Below, piece after piece: positions 14,915-52,000 of a DNA stretch of 64,000 nucleotides. Below the pieces are notes generated by a model that had not been told where the DNA came from, did no database searches, and saw nothing but the letters and a program-made list of their open reading frames with translations. The position numbers were made by a program, and so were the translations under genes. The stretch spans positions 1,696,001-1,760,000 of the forward strand of contig OZ245006.1 of NCBI GenBank assembly GCA_965223545.1, given 5' to 3'. The first letter of the stretch is position 1; every line of letters starts with the position of its first letter. Origin of the DNA: Planctomycetota bacterium (GTDB lineage Bacteria > Planctomycetota > UBA1135 > UBA2386).

Positions 14915-15463
14915 ATGCTGCGCAATGGAATCCTGTCTGTCGGGCTCGGCACCGTGCTCTGCTCACTGGGCCTCGTCAACAACGCCACCGTGCCGGCTGC
15001 CGCCGCGGCGGAAGTCGCGGTCCCGACTCCCACGGGACCTTCGCCGAACGAGTTCATCTTCGGCCTGTCGGTCGCCGGCGTGTATCGCAACAGCTTCTCG
15101 GTCGGCGGCACGACGACCGTGGACGGATTGACCACCTTCCACGCGGACGGGACCTACAACTCGGTCGACGACAACGACCAGGTGCCGGGAAACTGGAACA
15201 CGATGACACACGGAATCTGGAAGCGGACCGGCCCGCTCCAACTGACCCTGCGCCAGATCAACCACGACTTCGACGCGAACGGCGCCCTGGAGTTCTTCGT
15301 CCGCACCGATCTGGTGGGAGACTTCGACCCCAACCTGCAGGGGGGTACGTTCGCCGGCTCGGTCGAGCTGTTTGCGGCCAGCCAGGACCCGCTGGATCCG
15401 AACGCGACGCCGATCGCGCGGATTCCCGTCACCGGGACTTCGCAGCGCATGTCCGTCCGGTAG
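14915..15463 (+). CDS. Secreted beta-barrel-like hypothetical protein
   Basis: AGGAGA RBS, signal peptide, TFHADG...HGIWKRTG pattern. Confidence 0.7.
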   Translation: MLRNGILSVGLGTVLCSLGLVNNATVPAAAAAEVAVPTPTGPSPNEFIFGLSVAGVYRNSFSVGGTTTVDGLTTFHADGTYNSVDDNDQVPGNWNTMTHGIWKRTGPLQLTLRQINHDFDANGALEFFVRTDLVGDFDPNLQGGTFAGSVELFAASQDPLDPNATPIARIPVTGTSQRMSVR

Positions 15464-15821
15464 GGCACGACCGGGCGTCGGCTTCCGGATGGTCGCTGGC
15501 CGGCAACCGTCGGTATCGACGGCTCCACGCCGGCTCAGCGGCCGGCGCAAACGCGGGAATCGCTGGCTCGACCTCCCTCGCGCAGCGGTCGCTCCTCGGT
15601 TGCGGCCTCGACTGCGCTGGGCAAGGCACGGAGGTCGGCCTCGCGCATGGTTCTTGCAGTGGCTCGGGTTGCTGACGACCACCCGCCGGGTGATTCGGTC
15701 CAGCGCTTTGTCGAGAGTCTCTGCCGCTCGAGTTTCTGCAACCATTCGGGCACTCCAGTGCGCGTCGCTCCCGCGGGTGGCGACGCAAGCCCTGCCCACT
15801 CGCAAGATCCGATCGAGGTCC

Positions 15822-18800
15822 ATGCCCCCCATGCCAACTCCACGCCGACTCGTTGCTTCCCTGTTCCCCACGGTCATGGCGTGCATCGCGCCCGCCGCAG
15901 CGCAGACTCTGGTCGCCGATATCGCCCAGTCGCCAATCCAGATCCCGCAGCCGGCATCGTGGCCGAACAACCCGTACCGCGCGTTCGGCGGCATCTTGTT
16001 CGGTGCGGACCTGACCAGCTTCGGCAGCGAGCTCTGGTTCAGCGACGGCACCGTCGCCGGAACCCGCCTGCTGGCCGACATCGAGCCCGGCTACCGCGGC
16101 TCCAACCCGCGGGGCTTCGCCACGCTGGCATCCGGGAACGTCGTCTTCAGCGCGGAGTCTGCTGACCTGGGCCGTGAGCTGTGGGTGACGGACGGCACGG
16201 CTGCGGGCACGCGCCTGGTCGCCGACCTCGCGCCGGGAACCACTGGGTCTTCCCCCGGCGGACTGACCGCCATCGGCGGAGTGGTCCTGTTCTTCGCCGA
16301 CGACGGGACGCGTGGCCTCGAGCTGTGGAGCACGGATGGCACGGCGGCCGGAACGGCACTCGTCGTCGATCTCACTCCCGGACCGATTGGTCTGTTTGCC
16401 ATCCCACCGATCACCGAACTGAGCAACGCCGCGCTCTTCATTACAGCCCCCCTCGGCGGCGGGTGGCAGCTGTGGCGTTCGGATGGCACCGCAGCTGGCA
16501 CCACGATGCTGCGCTTCGAGTTCACTGCGACTCGACCGAGGGCCGGTGGGTTCACCACGCTCGGCACCCGCGCGGTGTTCTGGGGCGACGGCGCCGCCGG
16601 CGCGGAGCCATGGGTGACGGACGGCACGAGTGCCGGCACGATGCTGCTCGCCGACGTGCTGCCGGGGGCTCTTCCCTCGCAGGTTCTCGGCCCGTACGCA
16701 GCCAGGCATTTCGTCGCGGCGGGCGGCCGCGCGTGGTTCTTGGCTTTCGGCGCCTCGGTGGGCCACGAGCTTTGGCTCACCGACGGAACACCGAGCGGCA
16801 CGCGCATCGTCACGACACTGGGTTCGCTCGCCGCCCGCCCTGGGGCGCTGCTCGGCGAAGTCGCCGGCGGCGACCTCGCATTCATGCTCGCCATGGACGC
16901 CGCGGTCGGGCAGTACGGGCTCTATCGTTCCGACGGCACCGCCGCAGGAACGGGACTGGTCTCCGTGCTCGGCAAGTCGATCGAGAACGTCCCCACCCCC
17001 GGAGTGGCCTTCGCGGGGGCGCTGTACTTCGCCGGGATCGGCAACGAGGGCACCGAGCTGTGGCGGACGGACGGCACCGCTGCTGGAACGGCGATCGTGT
17101 CCGATCTGCGGCCGGGAGCGACGGGGTCGGTGCCAACGGAGATGATCGACGCCGGCGGAACACTCGTGTTCAGCGCGGACGACGGCACAAGCGGACGCGA
17201 GCTGTGGCTGAGCGACGGGTCCGCTGCCGGCACGCGCATTGCGGACCTGGCCAAGGGTCCGATCAATTCCAGCTCGCATCCGCAGCTGATCGGCGTGCTC
17301 GACGGCAACAGCTACTGGCAAGTGTGGGCTGGGACCCCGGGCCCAACGTCGATCTGGCGATCGGACGGCACCACCGCCGGCACCACTGCTGTCTTGCCGA
17401 GCGCGCCCTTCGTCTTCCCCCCGACCGGTTTCGCTTCGGCCGTCGACTTCGCGATCTTCGGCGCGGTCGACCCCAACATCGGCGTCGAGCCGTGGGTCAT
17501 CGACTCCGCCGGCGTTCGGCCCCTCGTGGACCTGCGACCCGGCACCCGGGGCTCGGTGCGTGCCGAGTTCGCCAGCCTGGGCGACCGCATCGTGTTTGCC
17601 GCCGACGACGGCGTGCGCGGCAACGAGCTGTGGGTTACCGATGGCACCGCGGCCGGTACCGCGATCCTGGCCGACTTGGTGCCGGGATCCTCGCCATCCG
17701 ACCCCCACTCGCTGTTCGCTTGGAACGGGCAGGTGTTCTTCGCTGCGACCGACCCGACGCTGGGTACGGAGCTGCACGTCACCGACGGCACACCCAGCGG
17801 CACACGCCTGGTGCAAGACATCTACACGGGACGCAACCCGGCACTCCTGCAACCGGAGTTCACAGGCCTGGGAGACTTCGTCTACTTCGCCGCGGAAGAC
17901 GGCATCCACGGTCGAGAGCTGTGGCGCAGCGACGGCACGTCGGCCGGTACTGCTCTCGTGCACGACACCAACGGCATCTCGTTCTTTGGTGCCAAGCCGT
18001 ACGGGATGGCGGCGGTCGGTGACCGTGTCTTCTTCGCCGCGACGGTCGCTCTCGGTCAGTGGGTGCTGAGCACCGACGGTACGCCGGCGGGCACGAGCTT
18101 CGTGCGCTACGTCCCGGGCCGGGTCGAGGGCTCGCTGCAAGCGGTGGACGACACCCAAGCGGTGTACTTCGTGAGCGACGGCGCCAACTCATCGGCCCTG
18201 TGGCGCACCGACGGCACGAACGCGGGCAGCCGTCAGCTGCTCACCCTGAATACGCACCTCCTGCAGTGGGTGCAGCCCGAGATCCACAACGTCGGCGATG
18301 GCCGCGTCTTGTTCACCGCCAACGACGGCGCAAGTGGTCAGGAGCTTTGGGTGACCGACGGCACTGCTGCCGGCACGCGGTTGGTGGTCGACATCGCGCC
18401 CGTGGACGCCGACCCAACCGACCTTCAACGGCTGGGCAACCGCGTCGTGTTCTCCGCCAACGACGGCGTGCTGGGCCGAGAGCTCCACGGCATCGATTTG
18501 CTCGACACCGGCGCCTACGCGGCCGACCGCTACGGCTTCGGCTGCCCCGGCACCGGCGGCGTCGAGCCGAGCATCGAGGCGCGCGGCGCCGTGCGCAGCA
18601 GTCTCGGCAGCTGGCCCCTGGGGATCGACCGCGCGCTGCCGAGCAGCGCCGCGGCGGTGCTCGTCGGCGCCACCCGCCTCCGACTCCCCTTGTCGGGCAG
18701 CCTCTGCCGGCTGTGGACCGCACCGCTGGTCGCCCTGCCGGTGGCCATCGATCCGATGGGCAGCGCGACCCTCAACCTACCCGCCCCACCCGTCTCGGCA

Positions 18801-18902
18801 GGACTCGTCTTGCGCTGCCAAGCCGCCGTCCTCGACCCCGGCGGCGCATTCGGCGGACAACTCAGCAGCACCAGCGGCCTCGAGATCGTGATCGGCCAGT
18901 AG
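15822..18902 (+). CDS. ELWxxDGT-repeat secreted protein with shared C-terminal domain
   Basis: Many ELW(V/S/R)xDGTxxGT repeats; signal peptide; YGFGCPG linker then C-terminal domain. Confidence 0.9.
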   Translation: MPPMPTPRRLVASLFPTVMACIAPAAAQTLVADIAQSPIQIPQPASWPNNPYRAFGGILFGADLTSFGSELWFSDGTVAGTRLLADIEPGYRGSNPRGFATLASGNVVFSAESADLGRELWVTDGTAAGTRLVADLAPGTTGSSPGGLTAIGGVVLFFADDGTRGLELWSTDGTAAGTALVVDLTPGPIGLFAIPPITELSNAALFITAPLGGGWQLWRSDGTAAGTTMLRFEFTATRPRAGGFTTLGTRAVFWGDGAAGAEPWVTDGTSAGTMLLADVLPGALPSQVLGPYAARHFVAAGGRAWFLAFGASVGHELWLTDGTPSGTRIVTTLGSLAARPGALLGEVAGGDLAFMLAMDAAVGQYGLYRSDGTAAGTGLVSVLGKSIENVPTPGVAFAGALYFAGIGNEGTELWRTDGTAAGTAIVSDLRPGATGSVPTEMIDAGGTLVFSADDGTSGRELWLSDGSAAGTRIADLAKGPINSSSHPQLIGVLDGNSYWQVWAGTPGPTSIWRSDGTTAGTTAVLPSAPFVFPPTGFASAVDFAIFGAVDPNIGVEPWVIDSAGVRPLVDLRPGTRGSVRAEFASLGDRIVFAADDGVRGNELWVTDGTAAGTAILADLVPGSSPSDPHSLFAWNGQVFFAATDPTLGTELHVTDGTPSGTRLVQDIYTGRNPALLQPEFTGLGDFVYFAAEDGIHGRELWRSDGTSAGTALVHDTNGISFFGAKPYGMAAVGDRVFFAATVALGQWVLSTDGTPAGTSFVRYVPGRVEGSLQAVDDTQAVYFVSDGANSSALWRTDGTNAGSRQLLTLNTHLLQWVQPEIHNVGDGRVLFTANDGASGQELWVTDGTAAGTRLVVDIAPVDADPTDLQRLGNRVVFSANDGVLGRELHGIDLLDTGAYAADRYGFGCPGTGGVEPSIEARGAVRSSLGSWPLGIDRALPSSAAAVLVGATRLRLPLSGSLCRLWTAPLVALPVAIDPMGSATLNLPAPPVSAGLVLRCQAAVLDPGGAFGGQLSSTSGLEIVIGQ

Positions 18903-18954
18903 ACGCGCCCTGTCCGGAGCCCGGAAGTTGAACGTACGGAGCCTGACCTGAAAC

Positions 18955-20337
18955 TCACCCAGCCTCGGCGATCGGTATGAGCTTGTACCCGAGGGATTTA
19001 GCGTTCTGTCGGAGTCCGACGATGCGTCGCTGGGTGAAGCGCTCCTCGTAGGCCTTGGCGCCTTCGTCTACGTAGTCCTGGCCGAACTTCAGCATGCGGT
19101 AGATGAGCAGGGCCAGTTTGCGGGCGATGGCAAAGATGGCGACGTTGCCGTCCTTCGCGCGGGCGATCTTGCGGAAGTGTGCGCCGAGAGCTGTCTGAGT
19201 ACGTTGGAGGGACAGGGCGGCCATCCGGAGGACCGTGGCGATCCTGCTGACCGCGATGTTGTTGCGGTGCTTCTTGATGCGCTTTCCACCCGAGACGGCT
19301 TGACGTGGGCACAGGCGTAGCCAGGAGACGAAGTGCTTCTCGGTCGGGAAAGCTTCGAGGTCGTAGCCGACCTCGGTGAGCACGATCATGGCCGTGCTCG
19401 GGCTGATACCGTCGATTCGCGTGAGATCACACCCGACGAGCCGGCAGAGGGCATCGCGAAGCTCCCGGCCGCCCTTCGTTCGGATGCTCCTCTCCTTGCG
19501 GGGGTCTGGATGCTCGGGGACGTCGGCCGTCTTGGCTTCCTCCGGTTGCAGGTCCTCGATCATCGCCATCAATCGCTTCTCGACCGACTCGATCTCGTGG
19601 TCGGTGTGCTCGAGCATCCGCAAGCCCGAAGCGAGAGTGAAGATGTGCTCCTCGATCCAGGTCCCTTGCAAGTGATCCGCGAGCTCCTTCTCGGAGATCT
19701 TGCAGCGCGGATCACGCAGTCTGGCGAGCGCTCGAGGGTCGCGTTCACCAGCGAGAATCGCGCGGATGATCGCGAGGCCGGTCTTGCCGGTGATGTCCGT
19801 TACCGCGCGATGGATCGCCACGTTCATCTGATCCAGTGACCGCTGCATCAACTGCGTGTGGCGCGTGCGCTGCGCGATCAAAGACGCGGCATGGCGTTGC
19901 AGGGTCCGCAACGCACAGATGTCCTTCGGAGGCCGGAACGAAGCGCGAATGAGGCCATAGGTGTGTAGCTTCTGCAGCCAACTGCAATCGCTGGCATCGG
20001 ACTTGGAGCGGCCCGGCACGTTCTTCACCTCGCGGGCATTCGCGAGGATGACCTCGAAGCCTCTCGACTCGAGTAGCTCGTAGACGGGAATCCAGTAGAC
20101 ATAGGTGCTCTCCATCGCGACGGATCGCACTCCGAGCTCCTCCAGCCAGTCCGCGAGCGCCTCTAGCTGGGGCGTCGTCGTTCCGAATCGCTTGATCGGA
20201 CGACTGCCGTCGGGTGCTGCTGCGCACACCCAGTGCTCGCGGCTGCCGATGTCGATTCCGGCGGCGTTGGGCTTCACGACTGGCAATACTTCCGCTGCGG
20301 GCTTCTTGCCCTTCCTCGTTCTGCTCTTCCCAGCCAT
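18955..20337 (-). CDS. IS110-family DEDD recombinase/transposase
   Basis: GIDIG, AMEST and KSDASD catalytic residues; C-terminal IDGIS...SGG domain. Confidence 0.95.
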   Translation of the reverse strand: MAGKSRTRKGKKPAAEVLPVVKPNAAGIDIGSREHWVCAAAPDGSRPIKRFGTTTPQLEALADWLEELGVRSVAMESTYVYWIPVYELLESRGFEVILANAREVKNVPGRSKSDASDCSWLQKLHTYGLIRASFRPPKDICALRTLQRHAASLIAQRTRHTQLMQRSLDQMNVAIHRAVTDITGKTGLAIIRAILAGERDPRALARLRDPRCKISEKELADHLQGTWIEEHIFTLASGLRMLEHTDHEIESVEKRLMAMIEDLQPEEAKTADVPEHPDPRKERSIRTKGGRELRDALCRLVGCDLTRIDGISPSTAMIVLTEVGYDLEAFPTEKHFVSWLRLCPRQAVSGGKRIKKHRNNIAVSRIATVLRMAALSLQRTQTALGAHFRKIARAKDGNVAIFAIARKLALLIYRMLKFGQDYVDEGAKAYEERFTQRRIVGLRQNAKSLGYKLIPIAEAG

Positions 20338-20587
20338 ACTTCATCCTCATTGTTGTGGTGGGCCCGGCCCGAGGCGGCGATCAAACGAATCTGACCTGCG
20401 GGAGTGGGCACGGCGACGTGCCCCTCACCAGTGAAGGATGGCCAACTCGGACCCAGACTGGCTCTGGGGCAAACGTGCTCCAGTGGCTATTGGGGGCGTA
20501 GCTGCCGGGCCCCTCACACGTTCCCCTCCCCCTTCCTCAGCGGCTAGTTTCCTGCCCTGAAGGGCCGACAAATCTGCCGGGGCAGGA
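20338..20587 (-). ncRNA. Candidate bridge RNA/seekRNA of IS110 copy A
   Basis: 250-nt structured non-coding leader with closing stem GGGCCCGGC/GCCGGGCCC; CTGACCTG (20391-20398) matches the donor junction and CTGGCTC (20458-20464) matches the target. Confidence 0.6.
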
Positions 20588-20645
20588 CTGGCTCCGATTC
20601 ATCACCCGGCGGTGCCGGGTGATGAATCGGAGCCTGACCTGAAAC

Positions 20646-22028
20646 TCACCCAGCCTCGACGATCGGTATGAGCTTGTACCCGAGGGATTTAGCGTTCTGT
20701 CGGAGTCCGACGATGCGTCGCTGGGTGAAGCGCTCCTCGTAGGCCTTGGCGCCTTCGTCTACGTAGTCCTGGCCGAACTTCAGCATGCGGTAGATGAGCA
20801 GGGCCAGTTTGCGGGCGATGGCAAAGATGGCGACGTTGCCGTCCTTCGCGCGGGCGATCTTGCGGAAGTGTGCGCCGAGAGCTGTCTGAGTACGTTGGAG
20901 GGACAGGGCGGCCATCCGGAGGACCGTGGCGATCCTGCTGACCGCGATGTTGTTGCGGTGCTTCTTGATGCGCTTTCCACCCGAGACGGCTTGACGTGGG
21001 CACAGGCGTAGCCAGGAGACGAAGTGCTTCTCGGTCGGGAAAGCATCGAGGTCGTAGCCGACCTCGGTGAGCACGATCATGGCCGTGCTCGGGCTGATAC
21101 CGTCGATTCGCGTGAGATCACACCCGACGAGCCGGCAGAGGGCATCGCGAAGCTCCCGGCCGCCCTTCGTTCGGATGCTCCTCTCCTTGCGGGGGTCTGG
21201 ATGCTCGGGGACGTCGGCCGTCTTGGCTTCCTCCGGTTGCAGGTCCTCGATCATCGCCATCAATCGCTTCTCGACCGACTCGATCTCGTGGTCGGTGTGC
21301 TCGAGCATCCGCAAGCCCGAAGCGAGAGTGAAGATGTGCTCCTCGATCCAGGTCCCTTGCAAGTGATCCGCGAGCTCCTTCTCGGAGATCTTGCAGCGCG
21401 GATCACGCAGTCTGGCGAGCGCTCGAGGGTCGCGTTCACCAGCGAGAATCGCGCGGATGATCGCGAGGCCGGTCTTGCCGGTGATGTCCGTTACCGCGCG
21501 ATGGATCGCCACGTTCATCTGATCCAGTGACCGCTGCATCAACTGCGTGTGGCGCGTGCGCTGCGCGATCAAAGACGCGGCATGGCGTTGCAGGGTCCGC
21601 AACGCACAGATGTCCTTCGGAGGCCGGAACGAAGCGCGAATGAGGCCATAGGTGTGTAGCTTCTGCAGCCAACTGCAATCGCTGGCATCGGACTTGGAGC
21701 GGCCCGGCACGTTCTTCACCTCGCGGGCATTCGCGAGGATGACCTCGAAGCCTCTCGACTCGAGTAGCTCGTAGACGGGAATCCAGTAGACATAGGTGCT
21801 CTCCATCGCGACGGATCGCACTCCGAGCTCCTCCAGCCAGTCCGCGAGCGCCTCTAGTTGGGGCGTCGTCGTTCCGAATCGCTTGATCGGACGACTGCCG
21901 TCGGGTGCTGCTGCGCACACCCAGTGCTCGCGGCTGCCGATGTCGATTCCGGCGGCGTTGGGCTTCACGACTGGTAATACTTCCGCTGCGGGCTTCTTGC
22001 CCTTCCTCGTTCTGCCCTTCCGAGCCAT
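20646..22028 (-). CDS. IS110-family DEDD recombinase/transposase
   Basis: 460 aa, same motifs as copy A with 4 visible amino-acid differences. Confidence 0.95.
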   Translation of the reverse strand: MARKGRTRKGKKPAAEVLPVVKPNAAGIDIGSREHWVCAAAPDGSRPIKRFGTTTPQLEALADWLEELGVRSVAMESTYVYWIPVYELLESRGFEVILANAREVKNVPGRSKSDASDCSWLQKLHTYGLIRASFRPPKDICALRTLQRHAASLIAQRTRHTQLMQRSLDQMNVAIHRAVTDITGKTGLAIIRAILAGERDPRALARLRDPRCKISEKELADHLQGTWIEEHIFTLASGLRMLEHTDHEIESVEKRLMAMIEDLQPEEAKTADVPEHPDPRKERSIRTKGGRELRDALCRLVGCDLTRIDGISPSTAMIVLTEVGYDLDAFPTEKHFVSWLRLCPRQAVSGGKRIKKHRNNIAVSRIATVLRMAALSLQRTQTALGAHFRKIARAKDGNVAIFAIARKLALLIYRMLKFGQDYVDEGAKAYEERFTQRRIVGLRQNAKSLGYKLIPIVEAG

Positions 22029-22279
22029 ACTTCATCCTCCTTGTTGTGGTGGGCCCGGCCCGAGGCGGCGATCAAACGAATCTGACCTGCGGGAGTGGGC
22101 ACGGCGACGTGCCCCTCACCAGTGAAGGATGGCCAACTCGGACCCAGACTGGCTCTGGGGCAAACGTGCTCCAGTGGCTATTGGGGGCGTAGCTGCCGGG
22201 CCCCTCACACGTTCCCCGCCCCCTTCCTCAGCGGCTAGTTTCCTGCCCTGAAGGGCCGACAAAATCTGTCGGGGCAGGA
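22029..22279 (-). ncRNA. Candidate bridge RNA/seekRNA of IS110 copy B
   Basis: Near-identical to 20338-20587; guide-like segments unchanged. Confidence 0.6.
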
Positions 22280-22298
22280 CTGGCTCCGTACGTTCAAC

Positions 22299-32881: not shown

Positions 32882-33787
32882 ATGATGGCGCGCGTGGACG
32901 CAACCGGCTCGCCGCAGGCCGCGCTCGAGGAGTTCCTCGACTTCATCGCCGCCGAGCTCCAGCTGTCGCCGCACACGGTCGCCGCATACCGCCGCGACCT
33001 CGACCCATTGCTGGCGGACGCGCGCCGGCTGCCGGGCCGCCGCGCACTGGCGACCCACATCGGCGCGCTGCGCAAACGGCGCGCGCCCGCATCGGTGGTG
33101 CGCGCGATGGCCGCGATCCGCGGCTTCTACCGGTTCTTGCACGTCGAGGGTCGCATCGACGACGACCCCGCCGACGGGCTCCTCGGCGCCCGGCTCGAGC
33201 GCAGTCTGCCGCGGGCGCTCGGCCGCCGGACGGTCGAACGGCTGCTCGAGGCATTCGACGGCGACGACGGCGATCTCGCGCTGCGCAACCGCTGCCTGCT
33301 TTGGCTGATGTACGCCACCGGCGCCCGCGTCTCCGAGGTGATCGGACTGCGCACGGCGGACTGCGACTTCGAGCGCGCGCTCGCCCTGGTGCGCGGCAAG
33401 GGCCGCAAGGAGCGCCTGGTGCCGCTGTCTCCCCCCGCGACGGCCCTGCTCCGGGACTACCTGGACCGAGTCCGCCCACGCCTGGCGGCGAGGGCCCGGA
33501 CCGCGACCGGCGACGCCGTCTTCCTCTCGCGCACCGGCCGCCCCCTCGAACGCACCCGCGTCTACCAAGTCGTGCGCACCGCCGCCGACCGCTGCGGCGT
33601 CACCGTCGCCTGCTCCCCCCACACCCTGCGCCACTCGTTCGCCACCCATTTGGTCGCCGGCGGCGCCGACCTCCGCGTCGTGCAGGAGCTCCTCGGCCAC
33701 GCCACCCTGCAGACCACCCAGATCTACACCCACGTCGACCCCCAACGCCTCCGCCAAACCCACCGCAACCACCACCCGCGCGGGTAG
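32882..33787 (+). CDS. xerD: Tyrosine recombinase XerD/XerC
   Basis: LMYATGARVSE, GKGRKERLVP, HTLRHSFATH and LLGH...TTQIYTHV; XerD versus XerC not firmly resolved. Confidence 0.85.
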   Translation: MMARVDATGSPQAALEEFLDFIAAELQLSPHTVAAYRRDLDPLLADARRLPGRRALATHIGALRKRRAPASVVRAMAAIRGFYRFLHVEGRIDDDPADGLLGARLERSLPRALGRRTVERLLEAFDGDDGDLALRNRCLLWLMYATGARVSEVIGLRTADCDFERALALVRGKGRKERLVPLSPPATALLRDYLDRVRPRLAARARTATGDAVFLSRTGRPLERTRVYQVVRTAADRCGVTVACSPHTLRHSFATHLVAGGADLRVVQELLGHATLQTTQIYTHVDPQRLRQTHRNHHPRG

Positions 33788-34917
33788 TACGGAGTCTGAC
33801 TCGATTTTCTCGCTTCGCGCCGTCACCACCGCCCCGCCGCGGTGCACCCAATCCCGACAGGAGGACGATGGCACGACGCGCACGATCGGACTACCCCGGG
33901 GCATGGCATCACGTGATGAACCGCGCCATCGCGCGGCGCACCGCGTTCGCGGAACGCGCGGAAGCGCGCGCGTTCCTGGCGCTGTGCGCGCGCCAAGTGC
34001 GCGAGGGCAGGCTGGCGATCCACGCGTTCTGCGTGATGGCGACCCACTTCCACCTGCTCGTGCAGAGCCCGCGTGGCGAACTGTCGGAGGCAATGCGGCG
34101 AATCGAGAACTTCTACGTGCGCTGGTTCAATCGCCGGCGCCGCCGCGACGGCTCGCTGTTTCGCGGGCGCTTCGCGTCGAAGCTGGTCGAGTGCGATCGG
34201 TACCGGCACGTCCTGGTGCGCTACATCGACCACAACCCGGTCATCGCCAAGGTCGCGCGCAGTGCCGCAGAGCACCGGTTCGGCTCGGCGCACGCGTGGG
34301 TGCGCGGGCGCACACCACCGTGGCTGCGCACCGACTGGATCGGTGCGCAGCTCGCTCCCGACCTGAAGCGCGGAATCCCGGTCGCGCAAGCGTACGGCTG
34401 GGCGTTCGGCGAGCCGACGGAGTCCCAACGCGACTGGTTCGAGTCACACGGAAAACGCAGCTGCGGTCGATCGCTCGGCGCACTCGCCGACGGCTCGCGC
34501 GAGCGCGTGCGCGCCTGGATGGTGCGCAAGGCGGCGTTGGCCGACGGCACCGCGCCGGAAGCGCCGGTCGTCGGCGCCGCGTCGGTGCACGTCGTGCTGA
34601 CGGCGATGGCCAGTGGACTCGGCGCGATGCCGGTTGGGCGGCCAGCGGCACGCGTGCGGGCCGACGCGCTCATCGCCGCATTCTTGTTCCGTGACCTGTG
34701 TGGGATGTCGTGGCGCGAGGTCGCGCACCACGGTGGCAGCTCGATCGGCGCAGCGCACCGGCGCTACCAGATGCACCGGTCCGCCCTCCGGGAGAACGCG
34801 CGCTACGCCGCGGTCGCCGCGCGCGCCGCGCGGTGCGCGGCGCGCGACTTCGCGCGTTCGGCCGCGCCGCGCGGGCGCGCGCCGCGAAGCGAGAAAATCG
34901 AGCCGGACTCCGTACTA
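33785..34917. mobile_element. RAYT cassette bounded by 35-bp inverted repeats
   Basis: TAGTACGGAGTCTGACTCGATTTTCTCGCTTCGCG (33785-33819) versus the reverse complement of 34883-34917; 2 mismatches. Confidence 0.85.
33868..34917 (+). CDS. REP-associated tyrosine transposase (RAYT/TnpA-REP, Y1 HUH) with C-terminal HTH; no stop at the cassette end (frame open to 37095)
   Basis: AGGAGG RBS; HVMNR, HUH motif MATHFHLL, LFRGRF, catalytic Tyr RYIDHNPV; HTH-like LCGMSWREVA. Confidence 0.85.
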
Positions 34918-49097: not shown

Positions 49098-52000
49098 TCA
49101 GCGTCCCAACGTCGCCCGCACGGGGTTGCTCATCGCGAAGCTCCCCGGCACACCGACGACCCCGCTCACGGCGTGCGCCACGATGCGCACGCCGAGAAGG
49201 GCGGGAGAATTCGGCACCGGCAACTGGGCACGGAATCCGTTCGCTGTCGACATGGCCGGCCATGCAACCAGCGGGGCCGCCGCAAGGTGGGAATAGCACG
49301 CGGGGGATCGAGCCAGCGATGGTTTGCCCGGCACGCCGACGAGGAGTAGACCCGCGGCTCCCGAGACTCGACCCGCGACGTCAAGCACAAGCGCCCCTGC
49401 CAAAACGGGGTCCGTCACTCCTTCCATTCGAGGCGGCGTTCCGAGGACACTGCCACAACCGACACCAGTCGACTGCGAAGTCGCGCCCGGGTCGATCACG
49501 GTCAGCTCGCGGCCCAGGACCGGGTCCCGCGCGCTGACCAAGAGCCGCCCGCCAACCAAAGCGTTGACGGGCGCTGTCGTCCCGCCAGCGGACTGGGTCG
49601 CCAAGACGAGCCCCGTTCCGAGCGCGGTTCCGTCGGTGCGCCACAGCTCCATGGCACCGTCGACGAGCATGTGCACGAAAGCGTGGCGGGCTCCCACCGG
49701 CAGGACCTCGAACGGCCACCAGCGCTGATTGCTGCTCGGCTGGTGCAGCAAGGCGAAGCGCATCCCGTCCCAGAACCACAGGCCGCCGCTGTCGGACTCC
49801 ACCAAGACGACGCCACCCGGCAGCTTCCCGGCAACCGCGCCTCGCACCGGCCGTTGGCCGGAAAAAACACTGCTGGCAGGCACGGTTCCGACGGGGGTCC
49901 CGTCGGACACCCACAGCTGCTCGGCCGAAGAAGCCGACCCGGCATCGATCAGCATCCTGCTCCCGCCGACACCGAGGACGCGCGGCATCGAGCCCACAGG
50001 ACCCGGCTCGAGATCCGCGAGCCGAACGGTTCCACCGCTGGTCGCATCGGTGATCCAAAGCTCCTTGCCGGCCGAGCCGTCGTCGGCCGAGAACACGATC
50101 CGGCCACCGAAGGTGCTCAGTAGCCGTGGCGATGATGACCCCAGAGGATTGACGTCCGCGACCTGCGTCGTCCCCACCGCTGTTCCGTCCGTCCGCCACA
50201 GCTCGAGCCCGCTCGCCGCGTCGTCCATCGAGAACAAGGCGACACCCCCGATCACGCCGAGCCAGCCGACCCCGGGCACCTGAGATTGCCACGACCGCAC
50301 GCGACGGGTCCCGGCGCCCGTTCCATCCGTCGACCAAAGCTCTCTGCCGGCACCCGACGACGTGAGGATCAGCAGCCGGTCGCGCAGTGGCTGCACTCCA
50401 GCGATCAGAGTGTCGGCCAGGCCAGTGGTCATGTCCGCCAGGACATACGTGCCACTCGCGGTGCCATCCGAACGCCACAGCTCGCTTCCAGTCGCGAACG
50501 GATCATGGGCGACGACGAGCACGAGGTCTCGCCAAGCCGTCGGCTGGAACCGCTGCGGCTCGAAATCGACGCCCGTGGGCGCGGGCACGGGTCGGGTTCC
50601 CGCGGGTGAGCCGTCGGTGCGCCATAGTCGGTTCCACGGCGGGCCGGGCACGGCCTGCGAGAAGTAGAACGCCTGGGTCTGCGCCACGGCCATGAAACTC
50701 GGACCCGGCGACCCTCTGGGCTGGGTGTCGGCCAACAGCACAGTGCCCGTCGAAGTACCGTCGCTCACCCAAATTTCGCGGCCATGAACGCCGTCGTCCG
50801 CACTGAAGAGCGCGAGCTCGCCGAACTCGGTGATCATCTGCGGCGACGAGTCCTGGGTCGCTCCGAAAGGCACCGACTCGATGTCAGCCACCAACGCCAC
50901 GCTTCGCCCATCGAACGACCAAGCCTCGAGCCCTCGCACTCCATCGTCGGCGGCGAACAAGCTCGGCGTCGAACCCGCACTCGCGGTGAGTCGCGAAGGC
51001 GACGAGCTTGCTGGACCGGACCAGACATCGACACCTCTGGTGCCGGCAGGCGTTCCATCGGTGACCCACGGCTCTCGCCCGATCCGACCGTTCTCCGCCG
51101 TGAACAGAAACGTCCCGTTCGGTCCTGCTACGACGTCTTCCGGCCAGCTCGATGACACGCCCGGCAGCAAGTCGAGCGAGCGGCTTCCGCCCGGAGTCCC
51201 ATCGGAGCACCAAAGCTCGTAGCCACCAAACGGCTCGACTCCCGTAAAGGCGATGGACGATCCGGACACGGCGAGACTGCGCTTGAAGCGACCCGCAAAG
51301 CCGCTGCCCAACCCCGGGTAGGCGTCGACCACGAGCAGCGTCCCGGCCGCCGAACCGTCCGAGCGCCAAACCTCGGTCCCAAAGCGCGGGTGGGTCGCGC
51401 CAAAGACGACCTCGTTGCCGAAACGCTGCACGGCGACGGGCCAGCTGCTCACCGGGCCCGGGTTCAAGTCCACGACCATGCGCGTTCCGGCCGGCGTACC
51501 ATCGGTGCACCAGAGCTCATCGCCGGTCGCCGCATCCGTGCCGACGAAGAACAAGAGCGCGCCGGCCGCCACCAGATCGCTCGACGCCGGCGCGATCCCC
51601 GCACGCACCAGCGCGGTCCCCGACGTCGTGCCATCCGTGCGCCAGAGATCCAACGCCGACGATTGACCGGCGAAGAAGTACACATCCCCGTTGAGCGTCG
51701 CGAGCTTCCGCGGGTCGGAGCTGGCGCTGCCCGGGGCGAGGTCTACCACTTGGCGGGTACCCTGCGGGGTCCCGTCAGTGCGCCACAACTCACGCCCGCG
51801 CACGGAATCGAAGGCGCTGAAGTAAAGCACGCCACTGACGACCACGCCGGGCGCCGGCGCCGACCCGCTGCCGCCGGGGTTGATGTCGGCCAGGAGTACC
51901 GCCGAGGTGCCGACCGTGATCCACGGCTCGCCGACGAGTTGTCCGTGCAGGGGGTCCGTCGCTGAGAAGACCATTTCTCCCGCCAAGCTCCCGATCGGCG

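Follow-up and report, generated by a model that had tools for sequence, protein, structure and literature searches.

The region at 20338..20587 of the window (the whole 64,000-nucleotide stretch of Planctomycetota DNA analysed here) is the non-coding left end of a minus-strand IS110 element that occurs twice in tandem there, with its right end 12 bp past the stop codon of the recombinase gene (Table 1). The genome carries 23 full copies of the element at 99.4-100% identity, 17/23 belonging to the commoner haplotype and 6/23 to that of copy B. Among these copies 12 columns are variable, none of them inside any guide; the two guide-like segments that an earlier note, made from the letters alone, had described as unchanged in copy B are unchanged in all 23. 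Recombinase residues D29, E76, D114 and D117 are invariant in an alignment of 17 relatives, S349 aligns with the serine loop of IS621, and the closest solved structures in the PDB, both by sequence and by fold, are IS621 and ISCro4. The DEDD (RuvC-like) and Transposase_20 domains with their catalytic residues, together with a specific oriented target and a short shared core without terminal inverted repeats, agree with membership of the IS110 family.

Table 1. Features of the IS110 element and its insertion site, in window coordinates.
Feature	Position	Strand	Remarks
IS110 element, copy A	18943..20590	-	1648 bp including CAG at both ends; boundaries from 23 genomic copies with different flanks
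Right donor bases and right core AG	18943..18949	-	Read by guide 4
Right subterminal repeat GTTTC	18950..18954	-	5 nt before right core; complementary to left GAAAC
Recombinase gene	18955..20337	-	460-aa IS110 recombinase; PF01548 and PF02371 (Pfam); NF033542 above cut-off
Predicted bridge RNA core	20360..20512	-	Outer stem, target-binding loop, donor-binding loop; 33-sequence alignment
Guide 4, donor loop 3' strand	20389..20398	-	Right end of element, AG and two handshake positions
Guide 3, donor loop 5' strand	20431..20439	-	Identical to internal site X, not complementary to DNA beside core
Guide 2, target loop 3' strand	20456..20465	-	Left target flank, AG and 2-nt handshake equal to the element's first bases
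Guide 1, target loop 5' strand	20483..20491	-	Reverse complement of second core base and right target flank
Spacer between subterminal repeat and RNA, likely internal promoter (inferred)	20513..20546	-	From position; -35/-10-like words by eye in relatives
Left subterminal repeat GAAAC	20547..20551	-	36 nt from core
Internal site X, copied by guide 3	20558..20565	-	CCTTCA identical; 5 of 7 scored positions here
Left-end DNA hairpin	20565..20580	-	6-bp stem; one G.T pair in copy A, perfect in copy B
7-nt post-core spacer	20581..20587	-	Predicted displaced strand of donor bubble; handshake reads first two bases
Left core AG	20588..20589	-	CT on opposite strand
REP doublet centre	20590..20633	.	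Copies A and B inserted in its two loops
IS110 element, copy B	20634..22282	-	1649 bp; second haplotype; in the other REP of the same doublet

The insertion site is the loop of a GTAC-footed REP, at its AG core, in 22/23 copies. Left junctions end GAGC-CAG in 23/23 copies and right junctions continue CAG-GCTCC in 22/23, and the REP position is the same at 23/23 left and 22/23 right element junctions. This REP family, defined by a sequence pattern of our own, has 198 empty copies in the genome. The subtype matching the target guide comprises 21 independent filled sites vs 82 empty ones, whereas the subtype one base off at guide position -2 has 0 filled vs 55 empty (p=1e-4). A 10-nt guide match is present at 104 empty sites, 88 of them with the REP foot, and a structure gate on the target in addition to the guide match, as proposed for ISPpu10 in the published text consulted, therefore does not appear to be needed for this element.

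Each REP of the doublet at 20590-20633 is occupied by a different haplotype, the two elements pointing the same way. In the second REP the GTAC foot is on the far side and the loop is AG, where TG stands in the other doublets seen. A RAYT-like (Y1_Tnp) gene at 33786-34916 of the window lies between inverted GTAC-footed REPs of a sister subtype and adjoins an XerD-like gene, with 14 Y1_Tnp matches genome-wide. Large proteins with ~47-aa repeats, which we take to merit an ELWxxDGT-like label, flank the element at 15372-18902 and recur at about 49600-51900. Outside the window, at G000 C1:4826222-4829696, the right end of one copy abuts an AG that lies ~165 bp upstream of the REP, a junction that results in a tandem duplication of flank and element and looks like a one-ended or half-match event. 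At G000 C1:988112-988245, likewise beyond the window, 114 bp from the 5' end of the transposase run directly into an intact right end, the site not being a REP. No circle joint of the element was found in the contigs of four runs from one study, contigs being a form of data that drops rare forms.

Predicted bridge RNA and its junction guides

Relatives were gathered from genome, metagenome and viral collections and by a search of the phylum. The protein was matched by 166 loci, 143 of which have at least 150 nt upstream, and four boxed segments were parsed by pattern in 101 loci, giving 91 distinct guide sets; each guide test uses the subset of relatives having the required end. One segment was corrected by hand in L100 and one repeat picked of two in L089, the right ends of L006, L120 and L023 were left out as mis-parses, and the left ends of L147, L162 and L058 were left out as misplaced from the tree-pair test onward. 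A held-out set consisted of 12 plasmid loci from named isolates, none of them clinical. Among relatives on plasmids (H57-H74), one that is 43% identical is common in Citrobacter and Enterobacter (61 and 20 records, respectively). In a subclade with an AA core (L020, L047, L077, L119, L134, L171-L173 and L178) the target guide is an A-run; where read, its flanks resemble what is presumably the A-rich frameshift site of IS3-family elements, and one neighbour is annotated as IS3-like.

The predicted bridge RNA is a structured left-end RNA with two internal loops, as in IS621-type systems. In an alignment of 33 close relatives, changes on both sides were found in 22 of its 34 pairs, a value reached by 0/500 shuffles and by none of the slid controls, which supports the target-loop-then-donor-loop bridge RNA proposed in the earlier note. 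All the motifs named there were located, GAGCCAG at 20464-20458 and CAGGTCAG at 20398-20391, and the 9-bp closing stem is formed by 20512-20504/20368-20360. Other parts of the proposed fold fared less well. The terminal hairpin does have its arms TCCTGCCC/GGGCAGGA at 20587-20580/20557-20550, but it is not part of the covarying RNA and relatives do not conserve its outer stem, and the CCCAGA/TCTGGG hairpin is 74% paired in homologues, equal to shuffles (295/500), the guide being placed in an internal loop. Nor does the whole interval seem to be guide RNA, since its first ~75 nt look like donor-DNA structure together with a likely promoter. Scans of 20250-20700 for sigma-70 promoters and terminators were negative in this copy, and an Rfam search returned no relevant family. 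The predicted guides are bracketed by CC(C/A) and UG words that are reminiscent of box C/D anchors, which have been described for TIGR and IS110 RNAs in the text consulted (PMC12045711). Two Burkholderiales relatives have a far longer hairpin inside the target loop (L175:330-400 and L177:330-400).

The two segments named above are the target and donor guides (guides 2 and 4). The caution that matches of 7-8 nt are only suggestive was sound: in 100,000 Markov resamples of the 250-nt region, the 7-mer arose in 9.5% of draws, the 8-mer in 1.9% and both in 0.18%. Covariation with target and donor sequences across homologous elements, which had been put forward as a check, was found and removes the chance reading of both guide matches. 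Guide 2 matches 6-7 of 7 bases upstream of the left repeat in 62/65 relatives, a frequency that falls to 7% when guides are swapped. The final two bases of guide 2 track the first two bases of the element as a handshake (z 7.7). GAGCCAG had been read as a target half plus core, and the match stands, but it is really 9 nt long because it runs two bases into the left end of the element through this handshake, and the core is AG rather than CAG. Guide 4 equals the right end at 5.48 of 6 positions vs 2.51 (z 13.6, n=56), and 29/39 of its changes were concordant in tree pairs, where it served as positive control. The donor-loop handshake has z 3.8 across relatives, although the match is absent in this element; handshake dinucleotides thus follow the 3' guides across relatives as in IS621-type RNAs. 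AG is the core at 55/59 left and 51/56 right junctions of relatives, with the A invariant.

The second guide of each loop, which could not be found with confidence from the letters, is present in both (guides 1 and 3 in Table 1); guide 3 was not findable beside the crossover because its match is the internal left-end site. Guide 1 forms four contiguous pairs in this element, and its match is loose. Against the right flank at one register it scores 2.53 of 6 vs 1.51 expected (n=49, z 6.7), and its seventh base pairs with the second core base as C/G 44 times, U/A in 4/4 and G/C in 1/1, with five others, of 54; a tree-aware test of guide 1 was not significant (16/90 concordant, 3 crossed, p=0.25). 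A fold-back target, with guide 1 as same-strand copy of the downstream target, was also considered and gave no consistent peak at 24 offsets (best z 2.7 overall and 3.5 in one subset).

Three of the four guides covary with junction DNA, while guide 3 copies internal site X. By sequence, the target loop pairs with both target strands through guides 2 and 1, as in IS621-type RNAs. The bottom-strand match does not come first and the core in gene orientation is not CT: the order is reversed and the core is AG. Guides 2 and 4 occupy the 3' side of their loops and correspond to the IS621 RTG and RDG on the CT strand, and the reversed order with an AG core appears equivalent to the IS621 arrangement placed on the opposite strand. 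We regard it as almost certain, judging from sequence evidence, that the locus works as an IS110 bridge RNA. The suspicion that its architecture departs from that of IS621 was correct, but the palindromic target offered as a reason is not the cause. In IS621-type systems the donor loop pairs with both strands, left and right of the core; here guide 4 fits and guide 3 does not, and on that ground the guide RNA, as read from its sequence, is not a standard IS621-type RNA.

Guide 3 and the layout of the left end

At the canonical site beside the left core, guide 3 scores 1.03 of 6 vs 1.10 (n=62, z -0.7). Guide 3 equals site X, in a register fixed from GAAAC/GTAAC, at 4.57 of 7 positions vs 3.26 in close relatives (n=30, z 6.3, gap 6) and at 3.73 vs 2.14 in distant ones (n=33, z 7.9, gap 5); when the best of three gaps is taken, 25/28 close relatives match at 6-7 of 7. 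In 29 branch-disjoint tree pairs, 34/64 guide 3 changes have a concordant counterpart in X and 2 are crossed, whereas the canonical site, with equal register freedom, is concordant for 9/64 changes on the same pairs. Within the non-coding ends no other non-self signal for guide 3 is as strong as X, and reverse-complement peaks there stay at z<=3.8. The match fades to 3-5 of 7 in distant members. Nine of the 12 held-out plasmid loci parsed with the core and repeat layout, raw scores being 4-5 of 7 for X and 0-3 of 6 for the canonical site; the other 3/12 did not parse, two of these being at <=33% identity. Guide 3 as reverse complement of the right donor (z -2.0 to +2.2 at four registers) and a common complementary partner for guide 3 and X (weak peaks) were tried and rejected.

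The layout of the left end is constant: core, 7-8 nt, hairpin, X, 5-7 nt, GAAAC. The hairpin varies in length among relatives and outdoes shuffles in 40/62, with a strand asymmetry of 9 vs 4 of 62. The core-to-X distance ranges over 19-38 nt and the X-to-repeat distance over 5-7 nt (n=59), a combination of variable and near-fixed spacing that is expected if the hairpin is extruded. Beyond the search motif, the subterminal repeats are complementary at 2.07 of 4 positions vs 1.38 (0/5000, n=43), their five central bases having been selected by the search patterns themselves; a third repeat type, GTTAT/ATAAC, was noted by eye in Bacteroidota. In predicted foldings of reconstructed template strands the repeat stem closes with P>=0.5 in 47/50. 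This element is one of three exceptions, with P 0.31 for the repeat stem: a competing 8-bp stem pairs the post-core spacer with the bases before GAAAC, and closing the repeat stem costs 0.8-1.0 kcal/mol, after which both guide partners are predicted to be unpaired. The competing pairing is not conserved across relatives (all z<=1.5, n=59). In the commoner haplotype the hairpin has an A.C mismatch on the template strand.

Reading of the donor

The best explanation of these features, and one we hold to be probable on sequence evidence, is that the DNA read by the donor loop is one strand in a folded-back state. The bridge RNA would be made from a promoter within the left end, which would supply it without a double-stranded junction, and the recombinase would cut the CT-bearing (template) strand, by analogy with IS621 the first to be cut, and copy it out as a circle. 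According to the text consulted, the CT strand of IS621 is cut first (PMC11208158), one-strand excision yields single-stranded circles in IS621 and CazIS110-1 (10.1101/2025.10.25.684509; 10.64898/2026.08.31.748434), and ISPpu9 uses a native promoter, without a junction promoter (PMC12288879). Both donor guides, 3 and 4, have the sequence of the gene strand and would therefore pair with the template strand, which on the joined ends would run repeat, 5-7 nt, complement of X, hairpin, 7-8 nt, CT, 5 nt, repeat. At the circle junction the two subterminal repeats would close one side and the hairpin the other, leaving between them a bubble of ~14 nt. Within this bubble guide 4 would pair with CT and the bases of the right end; across from it, guide 3 would pair with the complement of X, which would take the place of the missing second strand. 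The folded strand would thus be a duplex-bubble-duplex with antiparallel guide partners, reproducing the donor geometry of IS621 with no need for second-strand synthesis. At the target, which would be REP DNA in its ordinary double-stranded form, the target loop would open the duplex with guides 2 and 1, and insertion would be driven forward by the handshake bases. Several points count against the fold-back donor: the competing stem, the template-strand hairpin mismatch, the fading of the X match with distance, and two published results as far as their text describes them, namely that CazIS110-1 favours a double-stranded donor ~20-fold at one junction (10.1101/2025.10.25.684509) and that ISPpu9 circles still formed, by end-point PCR of circle formation alone, when the left-end inverted repeat was mutated (PMC12288879).

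A bridge RNA with a double-stranded donor, in which the structure is extruded transiently, cruciform-like, in a supercoiled circle or guide 3 tethers the left end via duplex X during excision, is unlikely, although it accounts for the same guide 3/X covariation. Such a donor agrees with the finding that the other strand folds as well as the template (48/50 vs 47/50) and with the lack of strand bias in hairpin mismatches or in the replichore orientation of filled vs empty REP sites (11/23 vs 61/94, p=0.16). It would, however, require ~55 bp of melting around a mismatched bubble and leaves unexplained why both guides choose the first-cut strand, and the circles formed by the ISPpu9 mutant speak against a role of the hairpin in excision. 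Less likely still is a regulatory guide 3, whereby the RNP binds X upstream of its own promoter as autorepression, or X and guide 3 share an Asr9-like antisense partner, and the donor is recognised by guide 4 and protein contacts as a half-match. X does lie ~12 nt before the likely -35 region, antisense control is described in the ISPpu9 text (PMC12288879), and half-match recombination is reported in published text on IS621, with a one-ended junction in one copy here; yet the constant 7-8 nt from core to hairpin, the adjacency of hairpin and X and the complementary repeats are unaccounted for, and the dominance of X over the reverse-complement peaks also stands against it.

That the RNA is an ordinary IS621-type bridge RNA in which the identity of guide 3 and X reflects shared ancestry or composition is very improbable. 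Related elements inherit both sequences by descent, and the match is weak (3-4 of 7) in 15/59, but the tree-aware excess of concordant over crossed changes, the high scores of close relatives and the lack of canonical-site signal argue otherwise. With the fold-back donor as the preferred reading, we consider it an even question whether there is a widespread IS110 clade (Acidobacteriota, Myxococcota, Proteobacteria, Cyanobacteria, Bacteroidota and probably ISPpu9) whose donor loop has been rewired to read only the folded single-stranded circle. A donor guide reading an internal same-strand site was not found in the open text of the literature searched.

Comparison with known systems

For one element, all four guides and a well-defined target set (22 REP sites) are mapped here. 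In IS200/IS605 peel-and-paste transposition, a single-stranded circle is recognised via subterminal DNA hairpins, with HUH tyrosine chemistry, DNA guides and an enzyme unrelated to IS110. If the reading of a rewired clade is true, the element would be an RNA-guided peel-and-paste transposon. Its enzyme would then be a natural recombinase able to insert single-stranded DNA cargo programmably, and it would not recognise the element's own double-stranded ends, which would build in a direction; the unexplained left-end palindrome of ISPpu9 and its lack of a junction promoter would also be explained. The layout would further suggest rules for designing a bridge recombinase that might accept single-stranded cargo. 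The text consulted disagrees on whether IS110 elements are mobilised as single or as double strands (PMC13626964; preprints), and a clade in which both donor guides match the first-cut strand makes this dispute directly testable with oligonucleotides. Standard mining is predicted to miss such systems because donors are rebuilt as short core windows (25 nt, in the text of 10.64898/2026.10.21.760802). The proposed route resembles copy-out by CazIS110-1 and IS621, described as one-strand excision giving a single-stranded circle that can integrate (10.1101/2025.10.25.684509; 10.64898/2026.08.31.748434), but according to the text consulted their donor guides pair with both strands, so that a single strand is a half match, whereas both donor guides of the element would match the excised strand.

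With IS621 and ISCro4, as the text consulted describes them, the element shares a DEDD and serine recombinase, an RNA that lies upstream of the gene and in which the target loop precedes the donor loop (PMC11208160), a CT core with invariant T, a 2-nt handshake on the 3' guides and a REP target (PMC11208158; PMC13626964; 10.1101/2025.05.14.653916). It differs from them in the orientation of core and guides, which is inverted with respect to the gene, and in a 5' donor guide that reads the same strand as the 3' guide does, at an internal site. Its repeats measure ~7 bp and are placed asymmetrically, one at 5 nt and the other at 31-57 nt from the core, and its protein has 460 aa vs ~326, with ~20% identity. 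The top-strand-first order of guides is already known from the text on the IS1111 seekRNAs of ISEc11, ISPa11 and ISKpn4, which like the element have a top-strand target match 5' of a bottom-strand match as well as subterminal inverted repeats (PMC11187229). The seekRNA, however, lies downstream of the gene, with repeats of 11-13 bp at 7 and 3 bp from the ends, and a hairpin-displaced repeat is not described in that text (PMC11187229); the element has its RNA upstream and ~7-bp repeats at 5 and 36 nt, and so falls outside the IS1111 group.

A further likeness is to ISPpu9 of Pseudomonas putida (IS110 group), whose published text describes an AG core, REP insertion, a long structured 5' region, a left box of AG, 6-7 nt, a hairpin, ~13 nt and CAAAC, and a right box of GTTTG, 5 nt and AG, which would make GTTTG/CAAAC a fourth repeat type (PMC12288879). 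The AG core, the left box with hairpin and the short right box are all found in the element, the comparison being with the published boxes only. In the text consulted from that study the terms 'LTG' and 'binding loop' occur 0 times, guide mapping is absent and the hairpin is left unexplained (PMC12288879), whereas in the element described here the guides are mapped.
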